DNA of 64,000 bases. Source: Flectonema sp. DT1601. Lineage: Eukaryota. Where the stretch lies: positions 1,364,001-1,428,000 of the forward strand of contig OZ025795.1 in assembly GCA_964019425.1 (NCBI GenBank), in the 5' to 3' direction. The notes beneath the pieces are model-generated. The model was not told where the DNA came from and made no database searches. It was given only the letters and a program-made list of their open reading frames with translations. Position 1 is the first letter of the stretch; every line of letters starts with the position of its first letter. The position numbers and the translations under genes were made by a program. Positions 3,253-40,665 of the stretch are shown here, piece after piece.

Positions 3253-3860
3253 TTCATTGGGGCTGAACGCGCTTACGTGTTAACTGTGAAAAGGAAAGGG
3301 GGGAGAACGAAAGAACGAAGGGAGAAAAAAAAAAAGAAAAAAAATTCCCCTTTTTTTTACCCCAAAAATTACATTTATTCCTTGTTAACTCGTGTGTTCT
3401 GTCTGTCGGCAGTCAACATATCGTATCATACGAATTGCTTGTGAAATAGAAAGGGTTTTATGTTATTTTTGATTACTTGTTGGGTCCAATTTTAAAAACT
3501 CAACCCAAGTGATGTTCTCATACCTAACTTCTGACTTCTTCAGTGGTATCTGTTGATTGTAAAAGTCTTAAATCTTAACTTGTTGACTTCCTTCGTATTA
3601 ATCGTTTTTACTGTCTGCCTTCGAACAGATACAAGAAAGAGAAAGAATGTAATAATACAATTGTTTTTAGTGTTTTATGGTACCTTCTTTGGCCAACTTT
3701 AATTTTAACATATTTCATTCAGGAGCAACTTTGGGAAGGTGGGAGGAGAAGATTAGCTTGTGGTGTAGTATTATTATTGTTGTTATAACTTATTAGTTAT
3801 TTTTACAGAATTGAAAAAAAAAAAAAAAAGAAGGAAGAAGAAAAATAATAATAATTAAAT

Positions 3861-6800
3861 ATGGCTCAGGCCGTAACAGTTGCTGTCCGAGTACGTCCCT
3901 TCAATGACAGAGAGAAAGCAGAAGGAGCTCAGAATATAATTCAAATGAGCGGAGGTACAAAGACGACAATCGTTGGAGATCAGGGAAAGAGTCACACATT
4001 TAGTTTTGATCATTCGTTTTGGTCTCATGATGTCAACGGAGATAGACACGACTCTCAAGAAGATGTGTACCAAGCCCTTGGATCAAAGATTCTCTCTTCG
4101 GCAATAGATGGATACAATACTTGTCTCTTCGCATATGGACAGACTGGTTCTGGTAAGACTTACACTATGCTTGGGTATGGTGAAGACACTGGTGTTATTC
4201 CAAGACTCTGCAAAAGCCTATTCGAGACTTGCGACAAAAAACGTGATGACGAAGCTGGAGACTGGGATTGCCGAGTTCAGGTTTCCTATTTAGAAATTTA
4301 CAACGAGAAATGTCGTTGCTTACTAAACCCAAACAGTAAGGAAGTAAAGCCTAGAGAACACCCAGCAACAGGACCATATGTCGAGGGATTGACAACTGTA
4401 ATCGTAAGCACTTTTGAAGAAATCGAACAACTTATGGATGAAGGAAATAAAACTAGAACAGTGGCATCGACTGCTATGAATGCCACAAGCTCTCGATCAC
4501 ATGCTATTTTCACAATAACTTTCACACAATTTTCGAACCGAAACGCTGATCCCGACGGTAAAGGTTCTGAAAAGGTTTCAAAAATCAACCTCGTCGACCT
4601 CGCTGGTTCCGAGAGAGCCAACAAAACAGGAGCCACAGGAGCCACTTTAAAAGAAGGAGCGAACATAAATAAATCATTAGTATGTCTTGGGAAGGTTATT
4701 GCTGCTTTGGCAGATCACAAGAAAGGTGCGCACATCCCGTTCAGAGACTCTTCCTTAACTTGGTTATTAAAGGAAAACCTTGGTGGAAATAGCAGAACGA
4801 TTATGATGGCGGCATTGAGTCCACATGTTACTAACTATGAAGAATCATTATCAACGCTGAGGTATGCTGACAGAGCAAAGAGAATAAAAACACACGCAGT
4901 CGTAAACGAAGATCCGACTTCAAAAAGAATAAGAGAATTGACTGAAGAAGTTGACAGACTAAAACAGCTACTGACAAACACTAATATTCAACCAACTCAG
5001 TCTAAGACACAATCAACTGAAGAAGAAGAAGAAAATGAGTACACCTCTCTATCAGCTGCAGAGCAATTAGCACTCACAGTTGCGGCATTAGAAGATGCTG
5101 CTATGCCTTGGGAAGATAAACAAAAAAAGAATGAAGAAATTCAAGAAGAACGTCACCAAGCTCTTATTGAGTTGGGAATCGGAGTTGAAGTAGATAAGAA
5201 CAACCCGTCGCTTATTAATTTAAATGAAGATCCATTCATGAATGAATGTTTAGTTTATTTCTTGAAATCTGGAGAAACAACGATAGGATCATCACCAACT
5301 TGTGATATTACTATTCAGGGAGACTTACAATCTCATCATTGTACTATCACTACGTCGACAGATGAAATAAAACTTCAATCTACATCATCTGATGCAAACA
5401 CTTGTGTAAATGGACTTGAAGTAACTTTTGATAAACCTCTACAGCTACAACCGAGGGATAGGATTATATTTGGAGATCGTCACGTCTTCAGATTGAATCA
5501 TCCTTTAGTAGAACAAAAACAACGTGACGAGGGCAGTATTAATAACAACAGGTTCGATTACCAAATGGCCATAAACGAAAAGTACGAAACTTTTAAAAGA
5601 AATGTAATGCAAGAAGTCCAACGTGAAGAGAGAAGAAGAGAAGAAGAAGTTCAACAGCAGATTGATGATTTAAAAAAAGAAGAAAGACGTCGAGAAGAAG
5701 AAGTTGAACAACAACAACTATCTCGTATTGAAGCAGAGCTGAGAGTTAAAGAATTGGAAGAAAACTTAAAACAAACAAATGAAATATCACTACCGATGCA
5801 GAATTTAACTGGAACAGCACCAACAGTACCAACACCCAATAAGTTGGCTCCCGCAGGTATTGCCGCACAGCAAAAGGGAGCTCTACACACTTCAACAGGT
5901 GGGAGAATTAAATATGTTGATGTCGGATTGTTCTCAGCCAACCGAAAACATGTAAGCAGAGTACCTCCCCAACTCCTTCGTAAGTATAAAGTGATATTAA
6001 TAGGTCATGAAGAAGTTGGTAAGACATCAATTAAGAAATGTTGGCAAAGCGGAGATCCAAGATTCTTTAAAAAACTCCCCGACGTAATGTGTACTACGGG
6101 AATTGAAGTTCAAGAGCACCGTTTGAAGTACGAAGGACACGGAGCTGGAAAGCCAAGTGATGATGACTTGACTTTATCAGTTCTTGACTTTGCTGGGCAG
6201 GAAGTGTATCACAGTCACAGTTTGTTTTTATCACCGAGATCGATGTTTGTTTTTGTTTGGAACATGAGTAACTATGAAGATGGTCAAATGGCTGAATCAG
6301 AAGAATCGAGAATGATGTCCTGGCTTGATGAAGTCTACTCAAAGGCTCCTGGCTCTTCCGCTGTACTCCTCGGAACTCACAAAGATGAACTACCAAGTCA
6401 AAAGATTAGTAACTTAAATGCTATTCTAAATAACGTCAAAGCAAGAGTTGAAGAATACGTTCAGAGCATTCGCATAGCAGATGAACCAGAAAAAGATATT
6501 CGTGTTGTCGGATCGTACGCATGCAGTTGCAAGAGTCGTGGAGCGTGGGGTGGTGAATTTCAATCGGAAAAAGGTGCGAAGATGAGTGAACTACTCAGGG
6601 CAATTGGAGGGCAGGCTTTTAAGAATTGTCTCGCTGATAAACAATACCCAAGCGGTGCTATTCCGGGAAGACACATTCAATTTTTACGAGAGTTGGAAAG
6701 ATTAAAGAGTGAGAGAAAAAAACTACTTCTTCCTATTCAGGAATATGCTCAACTCGCATCTGACTTTGGGATTGAAGATCAGGGAGAGCTCAGAGACTGT

Positions 6801-8051
6801 ACAAATCTATTCCATTCGTGGAATGTAATTTATTTATTCACACAAGCAAAACGTCTTCTTGATCACCCATACATCTTTCTCCATCCTCTGTGGTTAAGTC
6901 ATATGGTTTCAGCTTTGTTTTCAATGGCGCACTTGCTCTACACTCCTCCAGCAGCTCGTAAGTACATCGGTGGGCTGAATTATAATCCAGAAGAGGCTCT
7001 TCGTGTTGATATGGGAAGACTACGTAATGGAGAATTGACTCTCTCTTTAGCAAGAGTGTTACTAAGTAGAAGTATAAAAGATATCAGAAATGATAAACAA
7101 GATGCTATGGTAGAAGACGTTGATTTAGAAATGTGTTTACAGCTACTCATCTCAATGGATTTAGTTTATCAAAGAGTTCTTCCTTCAGAATCAGATGATT
7201 CGGATGAAGAGACTAGTCAGTATTACGTCCCTTCATTGTTTCCTCTTAATCATCCTCCTTCACTTAAAGCTGTAGTTCCATATTTGTTTCAAAAGGGACT
7301 GTTCAGAATGTACATGTTTAATATTTTCCCAAAAGAATTCTACTACAGACTGGTATGCAGACTACAACACTTAATGATACCAATTTCTGTACCAGTTCCT
7401 GAAGGGATCACTATCGATATCGGTGAGGATGTGAAATACCTTCCTCCTAACTACGATCATCAAGTTCGAAACCACTGGAAAGATGGAATGTGGATAGGAA
7501 CTCAAGGGATTCGTGCATTTGTATATCAAATTGACACTATGATATACGCTGTCTTTTCACCTTCTGGTATGGGACAAACCGGAGAAGTTTCACAACAAGA
7601 ATTTATTGATTATTTCGATGAAGTAATCAACACTTTAGCAGACGAGTACGATGGACTTTCAATGTCTTGTTGTCAGCCGTGTGTTAATGGAGAATGTGAG
7701 AACTGGTTTGAAGTTAAGATCCTTAACGAAGTATCAAAGAAGGATGGATCTATTCAATGTCAGAACTGTCAGGAAGATAAACCCGCCAAGACCATCCTCC
7801 GAGGAGGAGGTTTAGAACGTTCTCCTGGTCCAGAATGGAATGATCTTTGGCCTAACCTGACAGCAGCATTAGGTACTGATAAAGCAGCTGCTCTCCTCTG
7901 TAGTTTGGAATGTATTATAAACGAGTCGGATATTTCTGATGCTGGTGAGTCATATTTATCGAAAGAGGACTCTGAATGTGATGTCTGGGCTGATAAATTC
8001 ATCAGCGTTCTGATGTACATCGCGTTCTGTCAGCAACAGTCTTACAGTTAG
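3861..8051 (+). CDS. Kinesin-3 (Unc104/KIF1-like) motor with FHA, coiled coil and C-terminal Roc GTPase-COR-like region
   Basis: Motor motifs VAVRVRP, GQTGSGKT, SSRSH, DLAGSER; LINLNED and RIIFG of the kinesin-3 FHA region; second P-loop GHEEVGKT with TTGIEV, DFAGQE and GTHKD. Confidence 0.92.
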   Translation: MAQAVTVAVRVRPFNDREKAEGAQNIIQMSGGTKTTIVGDQGKSHTFSFDHSFWSHDVNGDRHDSQEDVYQALGSKILSSAIDGYNTCLFAYGQTGSGKTYTMLGYGEDTGVIPRLCKSLFETCDKKRDDEAGDWDCRVQVSYLEIYNEKCRCLLNPNSKEVKPREHPATGPYVEGLTTVIVSTFEEIEQLMDEGNKTRTVASTAMNATSSRSHAIFTITFTQFSNRNADPDGKGSEKVSKINLVDLAGSERANKTGATGATLKEGANINKSLVCLGKVIAALADHKKGAHIPFRDSSLTWLLKENLGGNSRTIMMAALSPHVTNYEESLSTLRYADRAKRIKTHAVVNEDPTSKRIRELTEEVDRLKQLLTNTNIQPTQSKTQSTEEEEENEYTSLSAAEQLALTVAALEDAAMPWEDKQKKNEEIQEERHQALIELGIGVEVDKNNPSLINLNEDPFMNECLVYFLKSGETTIGSSPTCDITIQGDLQSHHCTITTSTDEIKLQSTSSDANTCVNGLEVTFDKPLQLQPRDRIIFGDRHVFRLNHPLVEQKQRDEGSINNNRFDYQMAINEKYETFKRNVMQEVQREERRREEEVQQQIDDLKKEERRREEEVEQQQLSRIEAELRVKELEENLKQTNEISLPMQNLTGTAPTVPTPNKLAPAGIAAQQKGALHTSTGGRIKYVDVGLFSANRKHVSRVPPQLLRKYKVILIGHEEVGKTSIKKCWQSGDPRFFKKLPDVMCTTGIEVQEHRLKYEGHGAGKPSDDDLTLSVLDFAGQEVYHSHSLFLSPRSMFVFVWNMSNYEDGQMAESEESRMMSWLDEVYSKAPGSSAVLLGTHKDELPSQKISNLNAILNNVKARVEEYVQSIRIADEPEKDIRVVGSYACSCKSRGAWGGEFQSEKGAKMSELLRAIGGQAFKNCLADKQYPSGAIPGRHIQFLRELERLKSERKKLLLPIQEYAQLASDFGIEDQGELRDCTNLFHSWNVIYLFTQAKRLLDHPYIFLHPLWLSHMVSALFSMAHLLYTPPAARKYIGGLNYNPEEALRVDMGRLRNGELTLSLARVLLSRSIKDIRNDKQDAMVEDVDLEMCLQLLISMDLVYQRVLPSESDDSDEETSQYYVPSLFPLNHPPSLKAVVPYLFQKGLFRMYMFNIFPKEFYYRLVCRLQHLMIPISVPVPEGITIDIGEDVKYLPPNYDHQVRNHWKDGMWIGTQGIRAFVYQIDTMIYAVFSPSGMGQTGEVSQQEFIDYFDEVINTLADEYDGLSMSCCQPCVNGECENWFEVKILNEVSKKDGSIQCQNCQEDKPAKTILRGGGLERSPGPEWNDLWPNLTAALGTDKAAALLCSLECIINESDISDAGESYLSKEDSECDVWADKFISVLMYIAFCQQQSYS

Positions 8052-9559: not shown

Positions 9560-10753
9560 ATGGATAACATTGAGCAAAGCACGAAGGAAGATGCCGAGGT
9601 TAGACATTTCCAGACTGTGAAGCAGGCATTCAAAGCTTATCAACAGCATACGTTGCTTTCATGGGAGAGTGTGTATCCTAAGTTCGCAGGGTTAGAGATG
9701 AGACATCGGGTGCTGCTGCAAGGCATGGATGATCACTTTGCTGCAATCAGGAGATGTGTAGCAGCGAACTTTGAAGTTTTGTCGAATATTGGAGATCCAC
9801 AGGCGCATAATCTGTTCAAGAATCAACCTTCGATAGTTGAAAATCAATTTCAGCCTTTTACACCTTCCGAGGGAGATATTGATAAAGTCAGATCTACGTT
9901 ACGACACCTTGTAAGAGACTGGTCTCAAGAAGGGTTCGCAGAGAGAGATACTTGCTACTCACCAATCTTACGCGAGATAGAAGCAACCTTTCCATTAAAT
10001 GAATGCAATCGCGCTGACATACGAGTACTGGTTCCTGGATGTGGACTCTCAAGACTTGCTTGGGAAATTAACCAAAGAGGGTTCTGTGTACAAGGCAATG
10101 AAATGTCTTTGTATATGTTGATGGCTTCTGATTTTATTTTAAACAGAACTGATTCTCAGAATCAATATTTTTTGTACCCTTGGGTTCATCAAACGACTAA
10201 TGTTCTCCGCAGATCTGATGTTTTGCGTGAAGTTCGAATCCCGGACGTCAATACTGCTCAGTCTTCCCCAAACGCTGGTGATTTCTCGATGATTGCTGGA
10301 CCGTTCACAGAAATTTATTCAATCGATGAACAACAAGCTAAATGGAACTGTGTGATTACGTCGTTCTTTTTAGATACTGCTACTGATGTATTTCAGTACA
10401 TAGAAACAATTTACCATATATTACCAATCGGGGGGCATTGGATCAATCTTGGACCTTTGCACTATCAACAGGCAGATTTAGACCTCTCTCTTGAAGATAT
10501 TAAAACTATCGTCACATCTCTCGGGTTTGATATCGTGTCGGAAGATTTAATACCAACAACATACACAAGCAACCCTCGATCAATGTTGAAAGTTACCTTT
10601 CAGAGTGCGTTCTTCCACGCAGTTAAAACAGGAAGGCGTCCTGATGTGCTGGAAAGAGCTCCACCATCGACTATCAGACTTCCAATCCCCTCAGAAGTGT
10701 TTCCTGTTAACAGCGCACGACTGTCTAGCGACGTAGTGGAGTCTGATGACTAA
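9560..10753 (+). CDS. CARNMT1: Carnosine N-methyltransferase-like (N2227 family) SAM-dependent methyltransferase
   Basis: Family motifs VRDWS.EG..ER, VLVPGCGLSRLAWEI, GNEMSLYML, FFLDTA, WINLGPL. Confidence 0.88.
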   Translation: MDNIEQSTKEDAEVRHFQTVKQAFKAYQQHTLLSWESVYPKFAGLEMRHRVLLQGMDDHFAAIRRCVAANFEVLSNIGDPQAHNLFKNQPSIVENQFQPFTPSEGDIDKVRSTLRHLVRDWSQEGFAERDTCYSPILREIEATFPLNECNRADIRVLVPGCGLSRLAWEINQRGFCVQGNEMSLYMLMASDFILNRTDSQNQYFLYPWVHQTTNVLRRSDVLREVRIPDVNTAQSSPNAGDFSMIAGPFTEIYSIDEQQAKWNCVITSFFLDTATDVFQYIETIYHILPIGGHWINLGPLHYQQADLDLSLEDIKTIVTSLGFDIVSEDLIPTTYTSNPRSMLKVTFQSAFFHAVKTGRRPDVLERAPPSTIRLPIPSEVFPVNSARLSSDVVESDD

Positions 10754-10994
10754 ATCTTTTTATTCTTTTGCATTTAGACTTTGTTGTAGACTTTTCTTTT
10801 ATTAAATAATCCGAGAATGAAGACATAAATATATTTGTGGTTCTGGTTCGTTTAATGTATATTTCATTTACTATTTCATTTACTTTCTCACAGAAACCTA
10901 ATGGATTAAAAGGAGTGGAGTGCTATCTTTGTTAAAGCATATGTGAAAAACATAACAGATTTTTCTCCATTGTCCAAAGTCCTCCGAAAATCTC

Positions 10995-11001
10995 AAAAAA
11001 A
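10995..11001 (-). terminator. RNA polymerase III terminator (T7 run) of tRNA-Val
   Basis: T7 on the - strand beginning just past the tRNA discriminator base. Confidence 0.75.
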
Positions 11002-11002
11002 C

Positions 11003-11076
11003 TATTCCCATCCGGGCTCGAACCGGAGACCTTCGCCGTGTTAAGGCGACGTCATAACCAACTAGACCATGGGAAC
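11003..11076 (-). tRNA. tRNA-Val(AAC)
   Basis: Reverse complement reads GTTCCCATGGTCTAGTTGGTTATGACGTCGCCTTAACACGGCGAAGGTCTCCGGTTCGAGCCCGGATGGGAATA: acceptor stem GTTCCCA/TGGGAAT, anticodon arm TCGCC-TTAACAC-GGCGA, T arm with GGTTCGAGCCC. Confidence 0.96.
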
Positions 11077-11097
11077 TACGAAACCAACGATTCTAAA

Positions 11098-11141
11098 GCT
11101 ACAGTTTCTGTACTTTATTGCTACAGTTTCTGTACTTTATT
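11098..11141 (+). repeat. Perfect 22-bp tandem duplication at the tRNA/retrotransposon junction
   Basis: gctacagtttctgtactttatt at 11098-11119 and 11120-11141. Confidence 0.95.
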
Positions 11142-11173
11142 GTGTGTGATTTACAAAAAAAAAAAAACTAAAA

Positions 11174-12538
11174 ATGTCCGGAACACAAGAATCGATGGTC
11201 GTGCAGCAACAAGAGCAAGCACAGCAATCAATGATGCAACAGCAGCAAGCACAGCAATTAATGGCACAGCAACAGCAGGCACAACACTTAATGATGCAAC
11301 AACAGCAGCCGCAACAGCCAACACAAAGCCAGCCGGTACAACAACAAGCGCAGAACAATTCCAACAATTGCTTTTTACATGGCAACTGGACGCTTGAGAC
11401 TTTAAGTCAGTCGCAAACTCACCTTCCCAACAATGTCCCACCAATCTCCCCCTTTTCGTTTATGAGCTCACCAATGATAGCGTTTAAACAGTATCTCAGA
11501 ATAACAAATCTGTATTTTAAAACAATAAACATTTTAAGTTTAAAAGAAATGCACTTCACAGTTTCAAAAGACAATGTTGTAAACGTTTTTTCTTGTTTAT
11601 TGGAAATCAAAAAAGAATGTGCAGCTGATTTCTTAGAAATATCCGGCCAACACGGCATTTTCTTTTCCGAACACAAAAGCACTCAACACCTCTCCTCCTA
11701 CTACACAATTGTGTGGACCCCTGACACACCTTACACCCAGCTTAAAAAGATAGCAATCGATCTCAATAAAGACCCAAAAAACAAAGGAGCCCTCGGGCTC
11801 ACAATGTACCAAGGAAGAAGCCTTGGGATACGAATTAAAAAAGAATCAGAAACAAACTTTCGTTCAAATTTTGGAGTAAAATGTCCGACTTATTTCGAGA
11901 TAAGCGGCATAAGCAAAGAGAACGCAACGTCATTTGACGTTGAATTTTTTTTTGATTTAATGAAAAAAAAAATTAAATACTGTTATAAAAAAAAAAGGGA
12001 AGAGTCACATGTTGTGAGCTCGTACGAGAATCTGCAGTCTTGCGGATCAGTAATCGTTAAAAAAATAACTCAACCCTCAAAAGATGAAAGAAGAATTGAA
12101 AAGAACTCAATAGAAACGAAAACAGACCAAACTGAAAAAAAAGATATTAACGAAAAAGGAAAAGGAAAAGGAAAAGGGAAAGGGAAAAAAGGAAAGAAAG
12201 GAACTAAGGGAGAGAGCGGTAAAGGAAAAAAAACTGTTTTGTCATCACCGTCAACCTCAGTAACCCCGTCAATAGAACAAACGGACATTTTAAACCAGCT
12301 AAAATTATTGTTAGATGCACAAACAAAGCATCTAACAACAAAGATCATTGGCACTTTTCTAGCCGATGATCCGAAAAAGCAAGCAGAAGCTTGGGATGCG
12401 GAAATAAACCCGCAAGAAAAAGAAGGTTTTCTACAAGGATCGATGGACGATGACATCGATCTTGTGAAACAGAAGCTGGACAAAGAAAACGATGGTGATG
12501 ACAACACAAAAAGAAAAAAAGAAGAACCTCCGAATTGA
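11174..12538 (+). CDS. Retrotransposon 1 ORF1 protein
   Basis: 454 aa directly upstream of the pol ORF; Q-rich N-terminal repeats, KGKGKG tract, and a YTIVW...GLT...LGIRI block resembling ORF1 of element 2. Confidence 0.8.
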   Translation: MSGTQESMVVQQQEQAQQSMMQQQQAQQLMAQQQQAQHLMMQQQQPQQPTQSQPVQQQAQNNSNNCFLHGNWTLETLSQSQTHLPNNVPPISPFSFMSSPMIAFKQYLRITNLYFKTINILSLKEMHFTVSKDNVVNVFSCLLEIKKECAADFLEISGQHGIFFSEHKSTQHLSSYYTIVWTPDTPYTQLKKIAIDLNKDPKNKGALGLTMYQGRSLGIRIKKESETNFRSNFGVKCPTYFEISGISKENATSFDVEFFFDLMKKKIKYCYKKKREESHVVSSYENLQSCGSVIVKKITQPSKDERRIEKNSIETKTDQTEKKDINEKGKGKGKGKGKKGKKGTKGESGKGKKTVLSSPSTSVTPSIEQTDILNQLKLLLDAQTKHLTTKIIGTFLADDPKKQAEAWDAEINPQEKEGFLQGSMDDDIDLVKQKLDKENDGDDNTKRKKEEPPN

Positions 12539-12616
12539 CTGTTTCCTTATAATTTATATCTTTTTTATTTCTCGAACCTTCTTTTGTGTGGAGACATCCA
12601 CCCGAACCCCGGTCCA
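12539..12616 (+). other. 2A-like (StopGo) peptide cassette immediately after the in-frame UGA
   Basis: Translates LFPYNLYLFYFSNLLLCGDIHPNPGP in the common ORF1/ORF2 frame; matches D(V/I)ExNPGP except for E to H. Confidence 0.78.
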
Positions 12617-15600
12617 CAAAAAAAGCAAAAAAACAGTGAGCTGAGAATTGTATCTTTTAATGTTTGTGGTCTCAAGTCGAAATCCGACGAAATAACTTTT
12701 TTTTTACAAAATATAAAACCTGACCTATTCATGGTTCAGGAAACATTGTTAAAGGATAACGACGAAACCATTAATTTTAATGGGTACAAGTGTCTCAGAA
12801 GAGACCGGAGAATTCCGGTAAAAAAAAACGCACCCGTCAGAGGTGGTGGATTGGCAATTTTTTACAAAAACAGCCTAAGCGTGACAGCATTCGCTGTTGC
12901 ACAACACAGCCAAGACTGCACTGAAGTCCAGGGCATTTTTGTGTCAAATTCAAAACAAACTGTAAGGGTATACAACGTGTACAGACCACCGGTAAGCCAA
13001 TCAACCTCTGATAGGTCCCCCTCTTTTGATATGAATAGTATTTTTCTTTTTAATAAAAATGATAAAGTAGTTATCGCGGGGGATCTTAACGCAAGGCATC
13101 CACTCTGGGACCCGAGAGACGAGTCAAACACAAATGGCCATGAAGTCTCGACTTTTCTAAACAATAACCAGTTTGAATGCTGCAACGTTAAGGAAATCCC
13201 CACAAGACCAAAATCAAACACTTCTCCTGATGTTGTTCTCCAAAAAAACTGTGATATTGGCAACTGGACGACGCTCGAATCTCTATCAAGCGATCATGTA
13301 CCAATGTATTTTTCTCTTTCTTTTTTTTCGGATTCGATAAACAGAGCGAACGGTGCAACGGTTTTTTCTTATAATTGGAACAGGGCACTGTGGCCAAACT
13401 ACAGCTCCCACCTCGAAAGGGTGGCGAAGCGACTTGAAAAGATTCAAGATAACCAGAAATTATCAATGGAATTCATAAAAGAATTAAAAAATGCGTTACG
13501 GATCTTTGTACCAAGGATTTATTTGAAAGGAAAGTCACCAAAGAAGTGGTGGAACACGACGGTTGCATCTAAGTTTCATGAGTTCAACGAGTCACATTGT
13601 GACCAACGGGATGATCTTACAGATCTGTCGCAACAGGGAAAGTCAATTTTTACATCTTTAAAAAAAGAACTCAAAAAAACAGTCGTTGATGCCAAGAATC
13701 AACAGTTTAAAAAAAGCCTTAAAAAAGACAAGTCTATTATTGAAGCTTTTGAAGACATAAGAGGCCTTGATGGAAGATCAAGACTTAAAGAAATTCGAGA
13801 AATCACCTGTGGTGATAAACTTGTTACAGATGATGTGGAAAAAGCATCAATTTTCAATAATCAATTTTTACAACGTGTTGGTAACATCAAAGAAAAAACA
13901 AAGACAAAGAAAATAGAAACAGACCCTTCTGATTTTACACCATTTACACAACATGAACTTAGAATCCAATTGAGAGGAATGGCTCTGGAAAAGAATTCAC
14001 CAGATGGCGTTCAAGGTATTCTTCTTAACCATTTGGGACCTAGAATGCTAAACATTTTACTTAAGATTTTTAACAATTCGTGGAAACATTCTGTTGTCCC
14101 GAGTGATTGGAAAGACACACACTGGATCCCTGTTTTAAAAAAAGGAAAACCCCCAAACCTCCCCTCTTCATATAGAATGATCTCTCTCACCCCTTTTATT
14201 GCGAAATTGATGGAAAGAATGGTGAAGGAACGTCTTACGTATTTTATGCAATCACCGAATGAAAAGAAAACTGACGGTATTGGTTTCAACCAAACTTCTT
14301 ATCGGAAAACGCGTTCTTGCCGGGAAAACATCCTATATGTTACGGACAGACTTAGATTTCTTAAACACCAAAAAAAGTCAGCGGCCCTTGTTCTTCTTGA
14401 TATCGAAAAAGCTTTTGATAGTGTGAACCATGATCTTCTCCTTCAAAGGATGGTAGATCTTGGAATACCAAAACATTTTATAGCCTGGATTCAGGCCTTT
14501 CTTAAAAAACGAAGAGCAGCGGTTGTTGTTAATAATGAAAAAGGTTCTTACCACAATGTTTATTCTGGCGTTCCACAAGGAACAGTTTTGTCGGCTCTAC
14601 TTTTTACTCTGTATATTGAAAAAGTCGCAGAAAGACTAGATATTACGGTTGCTAAGTATGCGGATGATATTGCTTTTGTAGTTGATGATGAAGGGAAAGG
14701 TTTTACTTATCATTTGGCAAAAACGAAATATTTCTTTAATGAGATTGAAAAGGATCTAAACGAATTAAAATTAAAAGTAAGTTATGAGCCTGACAAAACA
14801 AAACTTGTGTATTATCCCTACTCCCCAAATTCCCCACTACAAACACCTTTCACTTTTACTTCAAATTTAACAAAAAATATTGTTCCATGTGTTGATAGCG
14901 CCAAGCTTCTTGGGGTGATCCTTGATAACAAGCTCGATTGGAAACAGCATATCTCGTATATTTGTAGAAGAGTTAATCTTCGCTTAAGGTATCTGAAGCT
15001 TGTCGCATCAAAAGCATGGGGACAGTGTACTGCAACTTTGCGTGAGGTGTATGATTTGTATATTCGACCTGTCATAACAAACTCGTGTGAAGCTTTTTAT
15101 CCTGAAGTTAGGTATAAAAAGATTCACATGGACAGGCTTCTCTCTTTACACCTTAGGGGTGCGTGCTATGTCTTAGGTGCCTTACCACCAACAAGGGAAA
15201 CAAGAGATAAGATCTTTTTTGAGGCACAACAACAAAGTATCAACACCCATTTGAGACTTGAAACTGGTAGATGGTTCGCCAAAATGGCGCGAATCACGTC
15301 CCCTTTATTAAATGTCTTTATTCCACCTGAAAGAATATCCTCAACACCCATTGATTCTTTTACTCGTTTAGGAATGAATGTTCTGAAAGAACACAACCTT
15401 CTATCACTCAGTTTTGAGAAATATCCCATTTACGTTCATCCTCCATGGAGTTTTTCAAATGATTTCAATGTTTTTAAACCAGAAATGCATGTTAGAAAAA
15501 AAAAAGACAAAAAGAAAAATAAAAAAGCCTGTGAAGCTGTTCTTAATGAAATAAGGAAAGATTATGAACCAGTCTTAGAGGTATATACCGATGGTGCCGT

Positions 15601-16483
15601 TGTTGAAGAACGCGGTGCTGCGGGTGTGTACATCATAGACAGCGAAGGAAATGAATTTCTCACAAACAAAAGTGAAGCAGGAATAATCTGCACCTCTTTT
15701 AGGGCTGAAATGATGGCGATCAAAAACGCTTTTGTTTTACTTTTTAAGGAATTTAAACCGCCGGAAAATGCGTCAGTTTTATTTGTGTCAGACTCCTCCA
15801 GTGCCTTGATGGAACTGGAAAAAGGGGGAACAAAACAGAAAACGAGACTAGGAAGCCGCATCTGGCAGTTTATTGAATTTTTCAACAATAAATTCAAAAC
15901 AAAGTTTATTTTCCAGCATGTCTTTTCTCACTGTGGTATTGTCGGAAACGAAGAAGCAGACAAACTAGCCCAAAACATTTCATTAAAAAAAGATGAAGAA
16001 ACCCTTTTAAAACAAAAAAAAGTTCCCATAGACTACAGCACCCATGTAGCTAAACTAAAACACAGAATAAAAGAAAAATTTGACCCCCGTCCTTTCCCAT
16101 CTGAAACTGAAAGAGCGGAAGAAATTCTGATTTCACAACTCAGAATTGGCGACTGTAAACAAACACAAGGGAAATGTCCTAGGTGCAGAGAAAAAGACTC
16201 TGTAGAGCACCTGTTAGCAAAATGCTCAAAGTACAGAAAAGAGAGGAGGATGTATCTCCAGAAAGACTCTCTAACACAAGAAGAGTTAAAGGATTGTCTT
16301 TCCACTGTACAAGGACTAGAGAATGTTTTTCTTTTTATGTCATCTGCAAGAAGATATGTTTTTCCAGAAAAAGAAAAGAAAAAAGAAAATTTGAGTCAGG
16401 AAACAAAGAAAGAAAATGAAGAAAACGTTATCCTTCAACCCACACTTTTCAATACTGTGATTCAAAACTCACAACTGACTTGA
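12539..16483 (+). CDS. Retrotransposon 1 ORF2: AP endonuclease, reverse transcriptase, RNase H, CCHC zinc finger (no AUG start)
   Basis: APE motifs SFNV, VQET, GDLNA, SDH; RT motifs YRMISL, LDIEKAFDSV, GVPQG, YADD; RNase H motifs YTDGA, SDS, HCGIVGNEEAD; CPRC...HLLAKC. Frame is open from 12539. Confidence 0.95.
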   Translation: MFPYNLYLFYFSNLLLCGDIHPNPGPQKKQKNSELRIVSFNVCGLKSKSDEITFFLQNIKPDLFMVQETLLKDNDETINFNGYKCLRRDRRIPVKKNAPVRGGGLAIFYKNSLSVTAFAVAQHSQDCTEVQGIFVSNSKQTVRVYNVYRPPVSQSTSDRSPSFDMNSIFLFNKNDKVVIAGDLNARHPLWDPRDESNTNGHEVSTFLNNNQFECCNVKEIPTRPKSNTSPDVVLQKNCDIGNWTTLESLSSDHVPMYFSLSFFSDSINRANGATVFSYNWNRALWPNYSSHLERVAKRLEKIQDNQKLSMEFIKELKNALRIFVPRIYLKGKSPKKWWNTTVASKFHEFNESHCDQRDDLTDLSQQGKSIFTSLKKELKKTVVDAKNQQFKKSLKKDKSIIEAFEDIRGLDGRSRLKEIREITCGDKLVTDDVEKASIFNNQFLQRVGNIKEKTKTKKIETDPSDFTPFTQHELRIQLRGMALEKNSPDGVQGILLNHLGPRMLNILLKIFNNSWKHSVVPSDWKDTHWIPVLKKGKPPNLPSSYRMISLTPFIAKLMERMVKERLTYFMQSPNEKKTDGIGFNQTSYRKTRSCRENILYVTDRLRFLKHQKKSAALVLLDIEKAFDSVNHDLLLQRMVDLGIPKHFIAWIQAFLKKRRAAVVVNNEKGSYHNVYSGVPQGTVLSALLFTLYIEKVAERLDITVAKYADDIAFVVDDEGKGFTYHLAKTKYFFNEIEKDLNELKLKVSYEPDKTKLVYYPYSPNSPLQTPFTFTSNLTKNIVPCVDSAKLLGVILDNKLDWKQHISYICRRVNLRLRYLKLVASKAWGQCTATLREVYDLYIRPVITNSCEAFYPEVRYKKIHMDRLLSLHLRGACYVLGALPPTRETRDKIFFEAQQQSINTHLRLETGRWFAKMARITSPLLNVFIPPERISSTPIDSFTRLGMNVLKEHNLLSLSFEKYPIYVHPPWSFSNDFNVFKPEMHVRKKKDKKKNKKACEAVLNEIRKDYEPVLEVYTDGAVVEERGAAGVYIIDSEGNEFLTNKSEAGIICTSFRAEMMAIKNAFVLLFKEFKPPENASVLFVSDSSSALMELEKGGTKQKTRLGSRIWQFIEFFNNKFKTKFIFQHVFSHCGIVGNEEADKLAQNISLKKDEETLLKQKKVPIDYSTHVAKLKHRIKEKFDPRPFPSETERAEEILISQLRIGDCKQTQGKCPRCREKDSVEHLLAKCSKYRKERRMYLQKDSLTQEELKDCLSTVQGLENVFLFMSSARRYVFPEKEKKKENLSQETKKENEENVILQPTLFNTVIQNSQLT

Positions 16484-17086
16484 TTTCTCAAGCTTCCAAA
16501 TTAACCAAAGTAGCACCTACACCATGGGGATGGTCTGATTGTTGATTGACTGATGGGCCGATATAGATTGGACACAGATCGAGAGTTTTTGAGAGATCTT
16601 AGATGAAAGTCCGCACCTTTCAGGCCATCCCCAAAAAGCACATAGCAGCTACAGCTATGTCAATTCAAATTGCGACGAGCTGCAACTTCGACATGAAGTT
16701 TTTCGTTATTGTTCTTACCTTCTCCACATATTTACATATGTGATAAGTATAAGTCATATCTTACGATTGACAATTCCTCCCCATAAATAAATTTCTTTTT
16801 ATTATTTTATTTTACACCTGCCTTACTAACTTGGGGAGAAAGAAAGGATGAACAATGGGCCTCTTATGAGGTGGGCAATTGCCCTGGACCCACATTAAAT
16901 GTACGCGTGTTTTGCGTCAGCCCGTTGCTGTAGAAAAAGAAGAGACAGTTTCAGGTAGTAATGAAAAAAAAAAAAAAAAAAAAAAAAAGAAAGGAGAAAA
17001 AATATTTACTTCTTCTCCTGGTCAACTCAAGAAAGATTTTTCTTTCTCTTTCTTTGCCTTCAATGATGTTAAAAAAAAAAATTAAA

Positions 17087-18811
17087 ATGGCTGGTAAGAA
17101 AGCAATGCGTCCGCAAGATAGAAGGGCTGCGGAAAGGAGAGAAAGAGAAAGGAAAGAGGCGAAGAAAATGAGGGAACAAGCCAAGAATGAAATCCGGGAA
17201 GAAGAAGAGAGGACACAAAAACAGCAAGAAGGAGACGAAGACGTGGTGATGGGAGGATCACCAGAAGTATCAGAGGGAGAAGCGATGGAAGTGGAAGCAC
17301 CACAAACAAAAGAAGCAAGCCAAACGGCTGGTCCGAAACCGGAAACAAATCCTCCAACTCTGAAGCCAGAGCATTTCGGATGTAAACCATCAAAAATTAT
17401 AAAGATGGAAGACGGAATCAACAGCTCAACAGACGGCTTATCATTAGTACTGTCCCAACAAGCCTCTAAACTTGGAGAGGAATTCTACAAGACAGCTACG
17501 AAAACGAAGAGACTAACCCTGGTCTTCACCAAACCGCCAACGGAGTTAGCATTAAAATACGCGACAGCATCCCAACAGATTCAAACACCTGTCCAGATGG
17601 CAGTGGGACTAAGAATAAGATCATGGTGGTTTGTGACTTTTACCGGAGCAACCTACACCCCAACACTAATAGTGGCAACAAACATAAAGCCACCGATCAC
17701 TCACGAACTCATCGCGTGGGCTACAGCAAAGGAGTTAGGAGGAGATGCTATCAGAAACCCAGCATCGCTTACTGCAAAAATCAAGGCAGTGGTGGGTGAT
17801 CAGGGACGGGTCGACACAAGGACATTCCGGATAGTTGGAAAGGGGGATTTTAGTGAAGTCACAGTCCTACCAAACGATGAAAAGGCAGCAATCGCACTGA
17901 TGCACAACTCAGGGAGTAACAAAGTTTACTTCAGGATAAAATCGATAGAGGGCCTGACCAAGCATGTCTATGAAACAGTATGGCTTGACAGGAAAACTTC
18001 GAATGAGGAAGCCATGGGAGTCCTGAAGGCACAACAAGACATGTGCATGGGGCTGACTACCAACTATGGGAAGATAGGGATAAGGGTGAGTGCCTCTGCA
18101 AACGTAGAGAAAGTACGGAAGGGTGCCGGGAAATTCGCTGCGCAAGTCTACGGTGCTGGACTGTACCGTATCAGTGGTGCACAGTACAGGTGGTCGAACC
18201 GGCTCCAGGGAATGCTCTTGGAAGCGGGATTAAATTCTAAATTTATTCGCATGGAGAAAGGCGACTTCTTGGTCGCCCTCGATAAAAGTCCGAAAAGCCA
18301 GTTCTTACAATGTGGTGAGACCCTGATGTCTATTGAGAAAATGGAGCTGCCAGAAGACCAAAAACAACCAAAACCAGCCGTACAAAAGTATCGAGATGCG
18401 AAAATATCTTATGCGGAAGCAACTAAAAAGACACTGCAAGGAAACAAGCAGCCCCAACAACAAGAAAATAAACTGCCCCCATCGCAGGGAAAAACGCAAG
18501 AACTGAAGAAAGTAGAAGATGGTCTCAAGACTATGAAGGAAAGAACTGACGAGACGCTAGCAAAATTACAAACTGAGGTAGCTGACTTGCAAACTAGATT
18601 GGATGAAACGATGTCAAAAATGACGCAGATAATTGAAGGACTGACCAATGCGACAAAGAAAAATGAAGAAATGATTGTTAAAAATTATCAACAAATGTTG
18701 AATGCAATATCTCAAATTGCAACCGCCGTCAACAAGATAGAAGCCAAGGTAGGGCTAAGCGGAACTACCCACCAAGTAACAGCAAACCAAAACCACTGTC
18801 AAAATGATTGA
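17087..18811 (+). CDS. Retrotransposon 2 ORF1 protein
   Basis: Likely start MAGKK at 17087 (the upstream extension of the ORF call runs through the poly-A); charged N-terminus, YETVW...GLT...IGIRV block, C-terminal heptad-like coiled coil. Confidence 0.8.
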   Translation: MAGKKAMRPQDRRAAERRERERKEAKKMREQAKNEIREEEERTQKQQEGDEDVVMGGSPEVSEGEAMEVEAPQTKEASQTAGPKPETNPPTLKPEHFGCKPSKIIKMEDGINSSTDGLSLVLSQQASKLGEEFYKTATKTKRLTLVFTKPPTELALKYATASQQIQTPVQMAVGLRIRSWWFVTFTGATYTPTLIVATNIKPPITHELIAWATAKELGGDAIRNPASLTAKIKAVVGDQGRVDTRTFRIVGKGDFSEVTVLPNDEKAAIALMHNSGSNKVYFRIKSIEGLTKHVYETVWLDRKTSNEEAMGVLKAQQDMCMGLTTNYGKIGIRVSASANVEKVRKGAGKFAAQVYGAGLYRISGAQYRWSNRLQGMLLEAGLNSKFIRMEKGDFLVALDKSPKSQFLQCGETLMSIEKMELPEDQKQPKPAVQKYRDAKISYAEATKKTLQGNKQPQQQENKLPPSQGKTQELKKVEDGLKTMKERTDETLAKLQTEVADLQTRLDETMSKMTQIIEGLTNATKKNEEMIVKNYQQMLNAISQIATAVNKIEAKVGLSGTTHQVTANQNHCQND

Positions 18812-21800
18812 GATTTGGTCCAATAACATAAGATCGATACTACAAAATGAAAACTTCTTCCAATTAAATCGATCGTTAAGAGAGCACAAGCCAGAAATTG
18901 TTCTACTACAAGAAACATGGCTCAATTACGGAAAATTTCTAAATATAGATGGTTATATAATAATTCGAAGAGACAGCCTTCTGAAGGTAGGATACCGAGG
19001 TCTGGCCATACTTGTCAGAATGGATATTAAAAATTATGTGACAAAACTCCCCGACATCTCATACGACCAAACTGAGATACTATCTGTAGAATTGCGATCA
19101 ACACCGCCATTAAAAATACACAATGTATATCACCCGCCTAACGTAACGGCAACCACATGGAAGTTACCAACAGAGCCAGGAACACTGGTAGCAGGCGATA
19201 TCAACGGACATCATGAGATCTGGTCAAAAGGAAAGATGAATTCAGCAGGAACAAGCTTCTATAATTGGTCATTAGAAGCTGCCATGGAAGTATTAAACGA
19301 GCCCCAGCAGATAACGAGACCATTGAGCTCATCCTCCCCAGATATTATTGCTCTGGATAATTCAATGATGGCAAACATAGGACTGCTAAATGGATGGAGT
19401 AGCGACCATCTTCCAATAAGTGTAAAGATTGAAAACATACACTTGACGAAAACCAAACCACAATCGAACGAGATGTGGCAATGGAAATGGAAGTGTGCAA
19501 AGTGGCATGCATACTCGGAGGTTTTAACGACGGCGGCAACGAAGTTAAAGAATATTGAAACAGTGCAAAAACTTGCAACAAGGATCTCTGTAGAAATTCT
19601 GAAGGCTGCGAAACAAACCATACCGGGCTATAAGAAAAGGACGCAAACCACCTTCTCAGTGAGGGATCCAGAAATAGAAAGACTGCTTGATGAACCCAAC
19701 CAGGACAAAGTTGACAAGGATGCCATTGCGGAAGGCATCAGAAAAATTAAAAGAAACATCATCGAATGTGACATGACTGGGATGGACTACCAATGGGCTT
19801 TCAGAAAAGTAAAGCAACTTGAAGGGGGCATTGTTGATAATAACATTAGCGAATTAGAACATGAAGGCAGTACAACAACTGATCCAAAAGAAATGGCAGA
19901 CATATTTACCACGGCATACGCGACACAATTCAATCTGGTAGACGACGAAGTGCCCTCCTTGGTATTTGAGAACAAACCAGGGGACGAAGGCAATGAAGAA
20001 TTCACAATGAGAGAACTAAAGCGACAGCTCAAGAAATTAAAAGACAAGAAAGCACCTGGACCGGATGGGGTGTGGAACACTATGTTAAAGAAACTCCCAG
20101 AAACATTTATGGTGCAACTCTTACGGCTGTTCAACATGACTTGGGAAAAGTCGGCGGTTCCGAGATCTTGGAAGTATGGGATAGTAGTTCCAATCTTAAA
20201 ATCGGGAAAGGACAAGAAACGTGTACTCTCTTACCGACCAATAACATTAACGTCAGCAATAAGCAAGTTGTTTGAGAAGATGATGGCAGAAAGGATGCAT
20301 CATTTACTTGGGGACAGGATGAGTGCGCGGCAAGCCGCATATAAAAGAGGGCGCAGTGCCGTAGAAAATCTCTGCATGATAACAGAGAGACTACTAGATG
20401 GAAGGTACCGAGGTAGGGAATCGATGTTAATGACGTTTGACCTGCAGAAGGCATTCGATGCCGTCCAACCGAAAATTCTACTGAAGAGGATGTCTGAAGT
20501 TGGGATACCGGCGAAATACACAAGATGGGTCCAGAGCTATTTGACTGGGAGAAAGATCACAACCAGAGTAAACGGCGAAAAGGGAACATTCAAACACATA
20601 CAAGTCGGAGTACCCCAAGGAAGTGTCCTAGGACCACAGCTATTCTCGATATACATCGAAAGCCTTATACGAGAATTGAATAGGTATAAACCAGCAGTCT
20701 TTGCAGATGATGTTGGGCTCGTGATGACATCTCCAGATGTTAAAGGACTGGAGGACAAAGCTAACACAGCAGTACGCATCTTCTCAAATTGGGCCGCAGC
20801 ATCCCACATTTGTATAAACAAGAGCCCGGGTAAAACAGAGTTCATACATGTGAGGCCGGATACCGATAGCCAAGAAAATAAGTCTCCACAAGTGCTATAC
20901 CCGGAGGGGCACACCTTCAAATATGTCGTCACAACAGCAGAGGCCATCCGAAAAATGCTAAATAATCAGGACTCAACTACTATAGGCAATTCTAAAAAGG
21001 CGATAACACATTTCTATGTGGTTCCGCAGCATAAAATAAAACGAAAATTACCGACGACAGAAACTGTATTGGTAGACATGCAGATGGAACCTAGTAAATG
21101 CTCACAACTGCAAAAGGTTCGCACCAGAGGAGACATCCTGAGGATGCTGCAAGGAACTGGATCTGGTCTCAAGGCTTTTGCATTTTCGGTGGTGGACAAA
21201 CTACATGAAACGGATGTAGTAAGATACTTGGGAGTTCTGTACGACAAAAACCTCGACTTCAAAACTCACATGCGAAAGATGATGACGGCAGCCTCCAGAG
21301 GACTGGGGCTCCTGCTAAGACTCTCCAGGATGGGATGCAGGAAGAGAACCCTCATCTGTGTTCTGGTGACCGTTGTAATGGCGAGAGTGCTCTATGGGGT
21401 TGAAAGTTTTGCCTGGCTGCTGCCAAAGAGAGGTGACGTCAGTCTTGAGAGGCTAAACATCTTAATAAACAGAGCCGCTAGACAGGTAACGGGATGTCTG
21501 CCAAGCACCAGGCTGAGGAACTTGTACCATGAAGCAGATATGCCGAAATTACAAGAACACATACGCTACAAGATGTGTAGGGCCTATGAAGAATTCAAAT
21601 TAAGTCCCCACCTACCAGCTTGTAGCCTCACAATGACGGAGGGAGGCCTAAACTACCCACCAAAAACAGCTTGGGGTCGCATAGTTTGGGATGAATATGT
21701 GTCGGGGATCCCGGGACTCGACAAACACAGAAGCTCGTATCACTCGGAAATCAATCCAAAGCACTATAAGATGCGATCATGGAAGGTAACTAATGCAATG

Positions 21801-22769
21801 GAATTCAACTACTGTTTTGGAAAAGAAGAGGCAAAAGACAAAGAAGCCGGTCTACCAATTGAAGACGTGAAGGTGTACACAGATGGGTCTATTAGACATA
21901 GGACGAAGACGTACATGACTAAGTCAGGAGCATCTGTGATAATAGTGAAGGGTAAGGAAGTTAGCATGACCGGATTCAGAATACCTGTAGCAGGAAGCTC
22001 CTACAGAACTGAACAGATAGCCGTGGAACAAGCGATGAGAATACTCCTGAAAAACAAAAAGGCATCCGAAGGAATACTTCCCACAACAAAGACGCATATT
22101 CTAACTGACTCAATGTCGCTAATACAGGCACTTGAGCGAGGACCTGAAGAACAGAAATCTGCTACAAACGCATCAATCTGGAAGTTAGCACTGAAACTGG
22201 AACACAGAGGTGTTAATATTAACATGCAGTATGTCCCAGCACATATGGATGTGCTGTATAATGAAATAGCAGACAAGGTGGCAAAACACGCTGCAGGTAC
22301 GATAAAGAAACCTCCAGATGACAGTGTGGTACTCGAGAGTTTAGTTACTAGACTGGATATGGGAACCCTTATGACTTTTCACAAGAGAAGAAAACGAGAG
22401 GAGTGGATTGGAGCCGGCGAACAGAGGCATCCACCTTTTGTAGAAGAACTGACGAGACCACAAGAAGTCCTAATGTCCCGCTTCAGAGTTGGACACTGTA
22501 GATCTCTTAAACTAAAAGGAATAAACGAACAGTGCATCTTCTGTCATGGAGATACTGCAACACCGCATCATGTGCTTTTCAAGTGCAACCACTGGTGTAT
22601 CCAAAAGATGAGATCATTGTACATACACAGCATGATTAATACCGAAACTGGTGAAGTAGTGAGTAAAGTAGAGGACTGCTTCTTAAAGGAGAATCAACGC
22701 AACATGTCCAACTTTGTAGTGGTACTGGACCAAATAGCTGAAATGCTCGGAAGACCTGGAAATCCATAA
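18804..22769 (+). CDS. Retrotransposon 2 ORF2: AP endonuclease, reverse transcriptase, RNase H, CCHC zinc finger
   Basis: Motifs LQET, GDING, SDH; KAPGPDG, YRPITL, DLQKAFD, GVPQGSVLGP, FADD, YLGV; YTDGS, TDS, NEIAD; CIFC...HVLFKC. Confidence 0.95.
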   Translation: MIEIWSNNIRSILQNENFFQLNRSLREHKPEIVLLQETWLNYGKFLNIDGYIIIRRDSLLKVGYRGLAILVRMDIKNYVTKLPDISYDQTEILSVELRSTPPLKIHNVYHPPNVTATTWKLPTEPGTLVAGDINGHHEIWSKGKMNSAGTSFYNWSLEAAMEVLNEPQQITRPLSSSSPDIIALDNSMMANIGLLNGWSSDHLPISVKIENIHLTKTKPQSNEMWQWKWKCAKWHAYSEVLTTAATKLKNIETVQKLATRISVEILKAAKQTIPGYKKRTQTTFSVRDPEIERLLDEPNQDKVDKDAIAEGIRKIKRNIIECDMTGMDYQWAFRKVKQLEGGIVDNNISELEHEGSTTTDPKEMADIFTTAYATQFNLVDDEVPSLVFENKPGDEGNEEFTMRELKRQLKKLKDKKAPGPDGVWNTMLKKLPETFMVQLLRLFNMTWEKSAVPRSWKYGIVVPILKSGKDKKRVLSYRPITLTSAISKLFEKMMAERMHHLLGDRMSARQAAYKRGRSAVENLCMITERLLDGRYRGRESMLMTFDLQKAFDAVQPKILLKRMSEVGIPAKYTRWVQSYLTGRKITTRVNGEKGTFKHIQVGVPQGSVLGPQLFSIYIESLIRELNRYKPAVFADDVGLVMTSPDVKGLEDKANTAVRIFSNWAAASHICINKSPGKTEFIHVRPDTDSQENKSPQVLYPEGHTFKYVVTTAEAIRKMLNNQDSTTIGNSKKAITHFYVVPQHKIKRKLPTTETVLVDMQMEPSKCSQLQKVRTRGDILRMLQGTGSGLKAFAFSVVDKLHETDVVRYLGVLYDKNLDFKTHMRKMMTAASRGLGLLLRLSRMGCRKRTLICVLVTVVMARVLYGVESFAWLLPKRGDVSLERLNILINRAARQVTGCLPSTRLRNLYHEADMPKLQEHIRYKMCRAYEEFKLSPHLPACSLTMTEGGLNYPPKTAWGRIVWDEYVSGIPGLDKHRSSYHSEINPKHYKMRSWKVTNAMEFNYCFGKEEAKDKEAGLPIEDVKVYTDGSIRHRTKTYMTKSGASVIIVKGKEVSMTGFRIPVAGSSYRTEQIAVEQAMRILLKNKKASEGILPTTKTHILTDSMSLIQALERGPEEQKSATNASIWKLALKLEHRGVNINMQYVPAHMDVLYNEIADKVAKHAAGTIKKPPDDSVVLESLVTRLDMGTLMTFHKRRKREEWIGAGEQRHPPFVEELTRPQEVLMSRFRVGHCRSLKLKGINEQCIFCHGDTATPHHVLFKCNHWCIQKMRSLYIHSMINTETGEVVSKVEDCFLKENQRNMSNFVVVLDQIAEMLGRPGNP

Positions 22770-23130
22770 TTTAAAGATGCGGTTCTTAGACCAAATGAGG
22801 AAGTAAACTGAACTCTTTAGTAATTGATAAAGAAAGAAAACAAAGAAGATACGAAGCCTACGGGAACCCCCCATCCCATCCCCAATCCCCACAAAAAGAA
22901 AGTGTACAGAAGAAAGAAAGAACAACCGCGCCTAACAGCGCAAACAGCAAAGCAGGTCGAAGGAACCTGCTGTGCACACAAAAAAAAAAAAAAAAAAAAA
23001 AAAAATGTTCATATCTATAAATATTTCCCCCCTCAAGATTTCTGTGTACCAATGTTCACATAAGAATCTCAGGAGCTCAAGCCCCAGACGGAGTTTTTTA
23101 GTTGGATGGCCTTGGAGAAAAAAAAAACCC

Positions 23131-40607: not shown

Positions 40608-40665
<58 letters not shown>

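Follow-up and report, generated by a model that had tools for sequence, protein, structure and literature searches.

A LINE whose two open reading frames meet at an in-frame UGA directly followed by a 2A-like peptide

A long interspersed nuclear element (LINE) on the plus strand of a 64,000-nucleotide stretch of contig OZ025795.1 (the window) carries two open reading frames (ORFs) that lie in the same reading frame and are separated by a single UGA, whereby the second ORF opens without an AUG straight into a 2A-like (StopGo) peptide. This junction is real, unusual and fixed in an apparently active family. Its parts are known, but their combination with a spliced-leader (SL) relic and an insertion adjacent to a tRNA gene is new. 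The preliminary description of this DNA, which had placed ORF1 at 11174–12538 and reported the junction AAT-TGA-CTG, the shared frame and a 2A-like peptide ahead of the APE endonuclease domain, proved accurate in sequence. The junction region contains the following features, as read from the sequence:

11174–12538, plus strand: ORF1, from the ATG at 11174 to the TGA at 12536–12538, 454 aa
12536–12541, plus strand: UGA stop and adjoining CUG, in the context U-UGA-CUG-UUU
12539–12616, plus strand: leader of 25 codons with the 2A-like GDIHPNPG/P, predicted skip between 12613 and 12614
12592–12593, plus strand: AG behind a pyrimidine-rich tract, a possible trans-splice acceptor in a rival reading
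12614–16483, plus strand: ORF2 past the skip site, with APE, reverse transcriptase (RT), RNase H and a C-terminal CCHC-like knuckle
12641–12643, plus strand: in-frame CUG just before the APE start, codon 35, a possible non-AUG start in a rival reading
12731–12733, plus strand: codon 65, where ORF2 has its first in-frame AUG, past the invariant Asn41

The last codons of ORF1, AAT-TGA, are directly followed by the CTG at 12539, with which a stop-free frame of 1314 codons begins that runs to the TGA at 16481–16483. Codons 1–25 of the ORF2 frame finish with LLLCGDIHPNPG, whereby the Gly lies at 12611; the Pro beyond the predicted skip (12614–12616) is followed by QKKQKNS, and ELRIVSFNV starts at 12638. 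ORF2 gave Pfam matches to PF03372, PF14529, PF00078 and PF00075 (APE, RT, RNase H), and the CCHC-like knuckle was read directly from the sequence. As had been claimed before, the first in-frame AUG lies inside the APE domain, past Asn41, a residue that was kept in nine of nine aligned rows with a residue at this position (10 rows including the element itself, one with a gap). Initiation at Met65 would lose Asn41, so that no AUG yields an intact APE. The AUGs nearest to the junction, at 12498 and 12660, are both out of frame, and the latter opens only 11 codons.

Other copies of the element were judged from protein clusters, in which the position of an ORF end is visible and which stop codon it is is not. 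The ORF1 cluster comprises four variants on six contigs, and all six end at EEPPN. Each of three host genes present in single copy was seen on just one contig, so that the six ORF1 contigs represent separate loci. The ORF2 cluster has 18 near-identical members, of which 15 are listed; the full-length ones differ from the window copy at 0–6 residues (P0167, found on two contigs, P0174 and P0180 at 0, 4 and 6 residues, respectively), and several other members are truncated or frameshifted. No ORF1-ORF2 fusion was found among the proteins of 796–2270 aa, which is a weak blank given the 15 of 18 ORF2 members listed. The same ORF1 end on six of six contigs, together with the lack of a detected fusion, indicates that the stop is not a private error; it is a trait of a young family with intact ORF2. 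The preliminary description would have had to be given up if most copies carried a sense codon here, which is not what the clusters show. Reassignment of UGA in the host was rejected, as the standard code leaves ten long host ORFs open and UGA terminates one of them. Cis-splicing across the stop was rejected as well: retro-copies would lose the intron, yet six of six keep the stop.

A further ORF of 50 codons with two AUGs (12492–12644) lies in the +1 frame and spans the stop and the 2A. In the copy P0181 this +1 ORF is joined to ORF2 via an extra base in a T run, which is probably an assembly slip or decay. We dropped P0181 as a witness of TGAC, since its protein also fits other bases at that site. 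A frameshift from the +1 ORF at 12492 into ORF2 past the stop was likewise set aside, as inspection by eye found no canonical slippery heptamer.

A search of all six frames of the window for GD[IV][EH]xNPGP gave a single match, and 100 triplet shuffles gave none. Having H in the E position, the peptide is a variant of the class A 2A core GD(V/I)ExNPGP and not an exact match to it. At least 18–23 translated residues and a Leu-rich stretch are required for 2A, and 25 open codons with LLLC ahead of GD are present. The 2A motif is kept in a distant Flectonema relative, P0182, which is about 33% identical to the window LINE in this region: the last 13 residues of the leaders agree at 12 positions, the first 13 at two, and the P0182 leader begins with Met, unlike that of the window LINE. 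An [NH]PGP motif is present in 80 of 163 fetched proteins, with H in the E position in 30 of the 80. The earlier concern that the E-to-H change may lower skipping efficiency is softened by published data: E14H is the sole tolerated change at that site in P2A (2026 preprint, 10.64898/2026.09.24.754024), a natural p14=H peptide is more than 95% active, and p14=H is listed as a functional variant (PNAS paper, PMC12846837). The concern is kept alive by Crack-15_BF, an E-to-H peptide with very low activity (Odon et al., PMC3708506). StopGo activity of the window peptide is therefore predicted to be plausible and context-dependent.

In order to place the layout among other LINEs, a metagenome collection, of which about one third was covered, was scanned for GD[IV]HPNPGP. 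The scan gave 122 stretches, 80 of them with wide flanks; in 78 of these 80 loci the motif is followed by a LINE ORF2, and in 67 an in-frame stop is visible upstream. Stop and motif have an AUG between them in 56 of the 67 loci, and a stop lies within 40 codons of the motif in five, all with broken ORF2s. In none of the 67 does a long ORF in the frame of the motif end shortly ahead of it (at least 1200 nt of upstream sequence were present in only 18 of the 78 loci, and no close relative was among them, the best being 26% identical). Among the 18 loci with at least 600 open codons, an AUG is present in 16 and absent in two (L190 and L194), and the nearest upstream stop is 64 codons from the motif, versus 25 in the window LINE. 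As a viral 2A control, 68 motif matches with a visible upstream stop yielded three stops within 40 codons, none of them behind an ORF of more than 145 codons. DNA of loci from the diplonemid clade described below was not found among metagenome, viral or genome contigs, where L246 is a 30-residue match. The novelty claimed in the preliminary description thus holds in so far as the layout is absent from the 67 surveyed loci and from the literature found.

L190 (minus strand, 366 nt before the motif) has 1220 open codons and a UGA 71 codons upstream, L194 (minus strand, 195 nt before the motif) has 1132 open codons and a UGA 64 codons upstream, and neither contains an AUG in between. Both are related to P0110, and Rfam gave no match to a hepatitis delta virus (HDV)-like ribozyme in either. 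AUG-less 2A-ORF2s may recur in other LINE groups.

The ends of the element and its insertion site are marked by four features:

11003–11076, minus strand: tRNA-Val(AAC) gene, detected by ARAGORN and Rfam (RF00005)
11082–11120, plus strand: copy of an SL exon, 39 nt, at the 5' end of the element
11121–11142, plus strand: relic SL, an exact copy of SL nucleotides 18–39
16963–16988, plus strand: poly(A) run, the likely 3' end of the element judging by its sequence

By-eye comparison showed the SL copy to be identical at 37 of 39 nt to the "Euglenozoa 14" entry in the table of PMC3795323, and its 20-nt core occurs twice in the window, where 0.03 occurrences are expected. The relic SL begins directly after the AG at SL nucleotides 16–17, and no GT donor stands behind it. 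A full SL followed by a copy that is cut after the internal AG and lacks a GT donor is the pattern of the relict SLs of dinoflagellates (PMC3229502). It indicates that the parent copy already had an SL and that a new SL was spliced onto its AG. The inserted copy has the order SL-ORF1-UGA-ORF2-poly(A), from which it follows that an unspliced two-ORF RNA served as template. In L1, the ORF2 protein acts on the RNA that made it (cis preference), and we assume the same for the window LINE. If cis preference holds, ribosomes must cross the UGA on this RNA.

The tRNA gene and the element stand head to head, and 5 bp separate the gene and the SL. In addition, the 5'-truncated copy P0179 has a foreign N-terminus of 29 residues into which a reversed tRNA B-box and A-box would fit at a spacing of 54 nt, a fit that was seen in 0 of 408 control windows. 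This suggests that the element targets tRNA genes, as seen at one site and inferred at a second. Targeting of tRNA genes is known from the Dictyostelium element TRE5. Insertion in the manner of the SL-gene-targeting CRE/SLACS elements was rejected, since the tandem SL copies are confined to the 5' end and the endonuclease is of the APE type. Rfam found no ribozyme within 10700–19200. At the 3' side, P0205 shows the same element end abutting a second LINE family on another contig.

As the route to ORF2 protein we tentatively favour low-level read-through of the UGA followed by predicted StopGo, which we take to be a real possibility just short of an even chance. The full-length RNA would be SL-trans-spliced and hence capped, as the 5' SL shows for the window copy, and ORF1 would be translated from the first AUG, 31 nt past the relic SL. 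The UGA would halt most ribosomes, and a few would insert an amino acid owing to the basal leakiness of U-UGA-C, with no dedicated stimulator. StopGo at PG/P is then predicted to part the products, so that ORF2 protein would be scarce, unfused and Pro-started and the ORF1-leader protein released. The ORF2 protein would finally copy its own RNA and insert it beside a tRNA gene, cis preference being assumed. In line with this, the junction shows one feature of type II UGA read-through sites, namely UGA-C with one frame on both sides. UGA-C is the leakiest context, with 3–4% in one mammalian reporter study, and U at -1 raised read-through under aminoglycosides (PMC4615788). Of ten long host ORFs in the window, just one is closed by UGA, and C at +4 occurs in none (a small sample, in which some ends may be exon ends). 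Read-through would also give the 2A a job, that is, removing the ORF1 protein, and the neighbouring LINE of the window, whose APE start is provided with an AUG, lacks a 2A.

Several observations weigh against read-through. The positions +4 to +6 are CUG, and not the CUA or CGG that follows UGA in the type II motif (PMC4132726, PMC4615788). No 3' structure was found in the three windows folded (z -0.45, +0.09 and -1.46); mammalian read-through cases do work without one (PMC4132726). The CUG context and the lack of a 3' structure leave at best basal leakiness. Since UGA-C is the nearest upstream in-frame stop in 15 of the 67 surveyed loci, about chance level, that context alone carries little weight. 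In the three 2A-bearing relatives of diplonemid type, a Met is predicted to precede the skip site by 14, 46 and 70 codons (in P0040 the predicted M may represent another start codon), which lends no support to conservation of the stop-2A coupling between families. The shared ORF1 end was seen in six near-identical copies of one family, which at about 99% identity are unable to show selection and of which the others reveal the ORF1 end only, not which stop codon it is. The weakness of Crack-15_BF counts on the same side, and the stop-start junction (AUG/UGA) of the sister LINE next door favours reinitiation as a local habit. Read-through, which the preliminary description had proposed as the route, is thus not supported yet, given CUG in place of CUA or CGG, the missing 3' structure and a reinitiation model that fits as well. 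A hairpin late in ORF1 (12430–12467, 70–105 nt before the stop) reached z -2.4 as one of six windows folded.

In that reinitiation model, which we regard as rather unlikely and yet as a serious contender, ribosomes would terminate at the UGA and restart at the adjacent CUG or otherwise without an AUG, and the 2A would trim the leader of 25 residues to leave a uniform, Pro-started ORF2 protein. The CUG touches the stop and is the least used Leu codon of ORF2 (11 of 123), and 25 codons come close to the minimum of 18–30 aa for a freshly started 2A (PMC3894237). In the neighbouring LINE the ORF2 AUG lies 5 nt ahead of the ORF1 UGA, and L190 and L194 represent intact 2A-ORF2s with no AUG from stop to 2A. 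SART1 and L1 reinitiate, tethered ribosomes accept non-canonical restart sites (PMC5972666), and human L1 ORF2 is AUG-independent according to a review (PMC11485995). However, reinitiation needs neither the shared frame of ORF1 and ORF2, which would arise by chance in one of three cases, nor a 2A. An AUG overlapping or adjoining the stop, as in the SART1 and termination upstream ribosome-binding site (TURBS) systems, is replaced by CUG only. UGGGA, the upstream tether that pairs with 18S rRNA in the TURBS type, occurs once, at 12392 and thus some 140 nt ahead of the stop, and is absent from the sister LINE; the late-ORF1 hairpin is the single outlier among the six windows tried. An improbable alternative would supply a separate mRNA instead: a second SL trans-splicing event at the AG 12592–12593 would yield an ORF2-only mRNA with a start at the CUG of codon 35, the U-rich "leader" being its polypyrimidine tract and the 2A a vestige. 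The host does trans-splice, and among the 335 AGs in the element none is preceded by a higher share of pyrimidines than this one, which ties for the top value and equals or exceeds the best candidates upstream of five host genes; conservation is lacking in the first 13 leader residues (the 2 of 13 given above), and a start at codon 35 retains Asn41. Trans-splicing would destroy the 2A, yet its last 13 residues are kept at 12 of 13 positions against an overall identity of about 33%. The pyrimidine content is expected from the codon use of the peptide (P=0.47, an argument that is circular if the peptide is not real), and full-length copies retain ORF1 and the stop, so that, under cis preference, unspliced RNA made the ORF2 protein.

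Two further explanations concern the 2A and the stop themselves. The 2A might skip poorly, so that read-through would give an ORF1-ORF2 fusion, or reinitiation an ORF2 protein with the leader attached, and the Leu-rich peptide would mainly cut output through stalling. Besides Crack-15_BF, this has in its favour that highly active 2A occurs in only 43 of 580 retroelement contigs, that Diplonema papillatum gene models have long ORF1-like regions fused to APE without 2A, and that 59% of tested 2A-like peptides linked to ORF2 protein reduced protein abundance (10.64898/2026.06.17.732966). Tolerance of E14H in P2A, the natural p14=H peptide with its high activity and conservation of the motif in Flectonema speak against it, and we give poor skipping a low probability. 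Least probable of all, the UGA could be a disabling change fixed in one parent, with ORF2 protein coming from unseen copies or another LINE. Decayed 2A-LINE copies do carry near stops, as the five broken ORF2s of the survey show, and the copies of the window LINE are known via protein clusters and not from the whole assembly. Against a disabling change, six of six ORF1s stop alike, no fused protein was found, ORF2 is intact over 1314 codons, and the nearest other LINEs are only about 28–36% identical to the window LINE.

As to the host, the long host ORFs of the window are all on one strand, and a carnosine N-methyltransferase encoded nearby shares 89% identity with a protein whose source names it Flectonema neradi; together these suggest a Flectonema-like diplonemid. 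A quick RT tree was built from 76 rows, comprising all fetched hits that align over at least 220 aa and no reference Ingi. In this tree ORF2 falls into a clade of 11 rows (SH-aLRT 100), whose named members are from Flectonema, Rhynchopus humris and D. papillatum; some are clustered with proteins called "Tbingi" or "L1Tc" by their sources, names that are also given to D. papillatum members of the clade. By these source names only, the element would be Ingi-like. In the D. papillatum gene models P0001, P0209, P0104, P0218 and P0220, which belong to this RT clade, APE is fused to a long ORF1-like region and a 2A is missing. The junction design differs widely inside the diplonemid RT clade. ORF1 is Gln-rich at its N-terminus and Lys/Gly-rich and acidic in its C-terminal parts. 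Pfam assigned it to no family, and no relatives beyond its own cluster, no Atlas match and no match in metagenome contigs were found; a single-sequence fold was uninformative (pLDDT 33). The pairwise comparison of ORF1 with D. papillatum P0001 gave E=0.002, which is a hint only, and a profile of the sister ORF1 and P0001 did not lift ORF1 above shuffles (2 of 500 scored higher).

The second LINE family is intact, follows the poly(A) of the first and extends over 16989–23006. Its ORF1 (17087–18811) and its ORF2, which starts with an ATG (18804–22769), meet in the junction AUG-AU-UGA without a 2A; a poly(A) lies near 22980–23006, and the ORF2 cluster has 39 members. Both LINE families co-occur on at least four contigs, with P0205 showing them abutting elsewhere, and they may share a target. 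Apart from the LINEs, Pfam identified a kinesin-3-type motor with an FHA domain fused to a Roc-COR domain (3855–8051), which is an unusual pairing, and two further kinesins are encoded at 25991–31087 and 37701–41249.

The window LINE shares with Ingi and L1Tc the APE-RT-RNase H order with a 2A directly before APE and a euglenozoan host (PMC3708506, PMC3894237, PMC1874656). Those elements have a single ORF and no ORF1, whereas the window LINE has an ORF1 of 454 aa on six contigs, and unlike them it has a stop before the 2A and no AUG. Their RNAs are unspliced and arise from an internal promoter (PMC1874656), whereas the window LINE has an SL at its 5' end; in place of the Pr77/HDV-like hallmark of trypanosomatid Ingi, this end consists of the SL and the relic SL. 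2A before APE is common in LINEs, and elements with ORF1 and 2A were noted in 2013 as possible intermediates in ORF1 loss (PMC3894237). The two-ORF LINEs CR1-26_BF, CR1-53_BF and CR1-1_LG likewise have ORF1 and a 2A ahead of APE, but in these CR1-type elements the 2A stands about 40–80 aa into ORF2, unlike in the window LINE. In the ORF1-2A-ORF2 fusions of Cordylochernes, the 2A joins both domains in one protein (bioRxiv 10.64898/2026.06.17.732966). Type II UGA systems (alphaviruses, AQP4, OPRL1, MAPK10; PMC4132726, PMC4615788) and MuLV gag-pol (PMC8310308) resemble the junction as a group in three respects: a stop that parts a structural-type ORF from a polymerase ORF of the same frame, UGA-C, and a low downstream ratio, which for the window LINE is a prediction. 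These read-through systems have CUA-G or CGG where the window LINE has CUG-U, and a 3' stem-loop or pseudoknot where none was found here; in the window LINE, StopGo and not a protease is predicted to bring about separation. A two-ORF RNA whose second ORF is reached past a stop is also found in SART1, human L1 and caliciviruses (PMC5972666, PMC11485995). Human L1 needs no AUG; the window LINE has no AUG near the stop and no spacer, and a 2A follows. With dinoflagellate retrogenes (PMC3229502) the element shares a full SL next to an SL cut just after the internal AG, which here lies on the retrotransposon itself and in a diplonemid. The claim of novelty thus narrows: earlier work already covers two-ORF LINEs that have a 2A as well as ORF1-2A-ORF2 fusions, and the coupling of the 2A to a stop without an AUG is what is new. 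In the literature covered, in which subscription papers, Repbase reports and supplements (including that of PMC3708506) are thinly represented and might hold such elements, we found no euglenozoan LINE described with a relic SL and no LINE in which a stop immediately precedes a 2A that lacks an AUG.

The junction bears on two open questions, namely by what route ORF2 of LINEs is translated and for what reason a 2A precedes APE in so many of these elements (PMC3894237). Being only 80 nt long and lacking both a spacer and an AUG, it would allow read-through, reinitiation and trans-splicing to be told apart in one reporter series. If read-through plus StopGo is true, it would be a new way to obtain a scarce, unfused polymerase from one frame, and it would give the 2A a function in LINEs that retain ORF1. 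The SL relic shows that this euglenozoan LINE moves via SL-spliced RNA, unlike L1Tc and ingi. Taken together, it is possible, though we would put it somewhat more cautiously than the route itself, that UGA read-through for dose and StopGo for a free enzyme stand back to back in a gag-pol-like arrangement that needs no protease and no ORF2 start codon. The retro-copied SL would then serve as a self-renewing trans-splice acceptor, tRNA genes would be the target, and the element would represent a still living link from LINEs with two ORFs to the Ingi/L1Tc elements of the sister lineage, which have a single ORF and a 2A.

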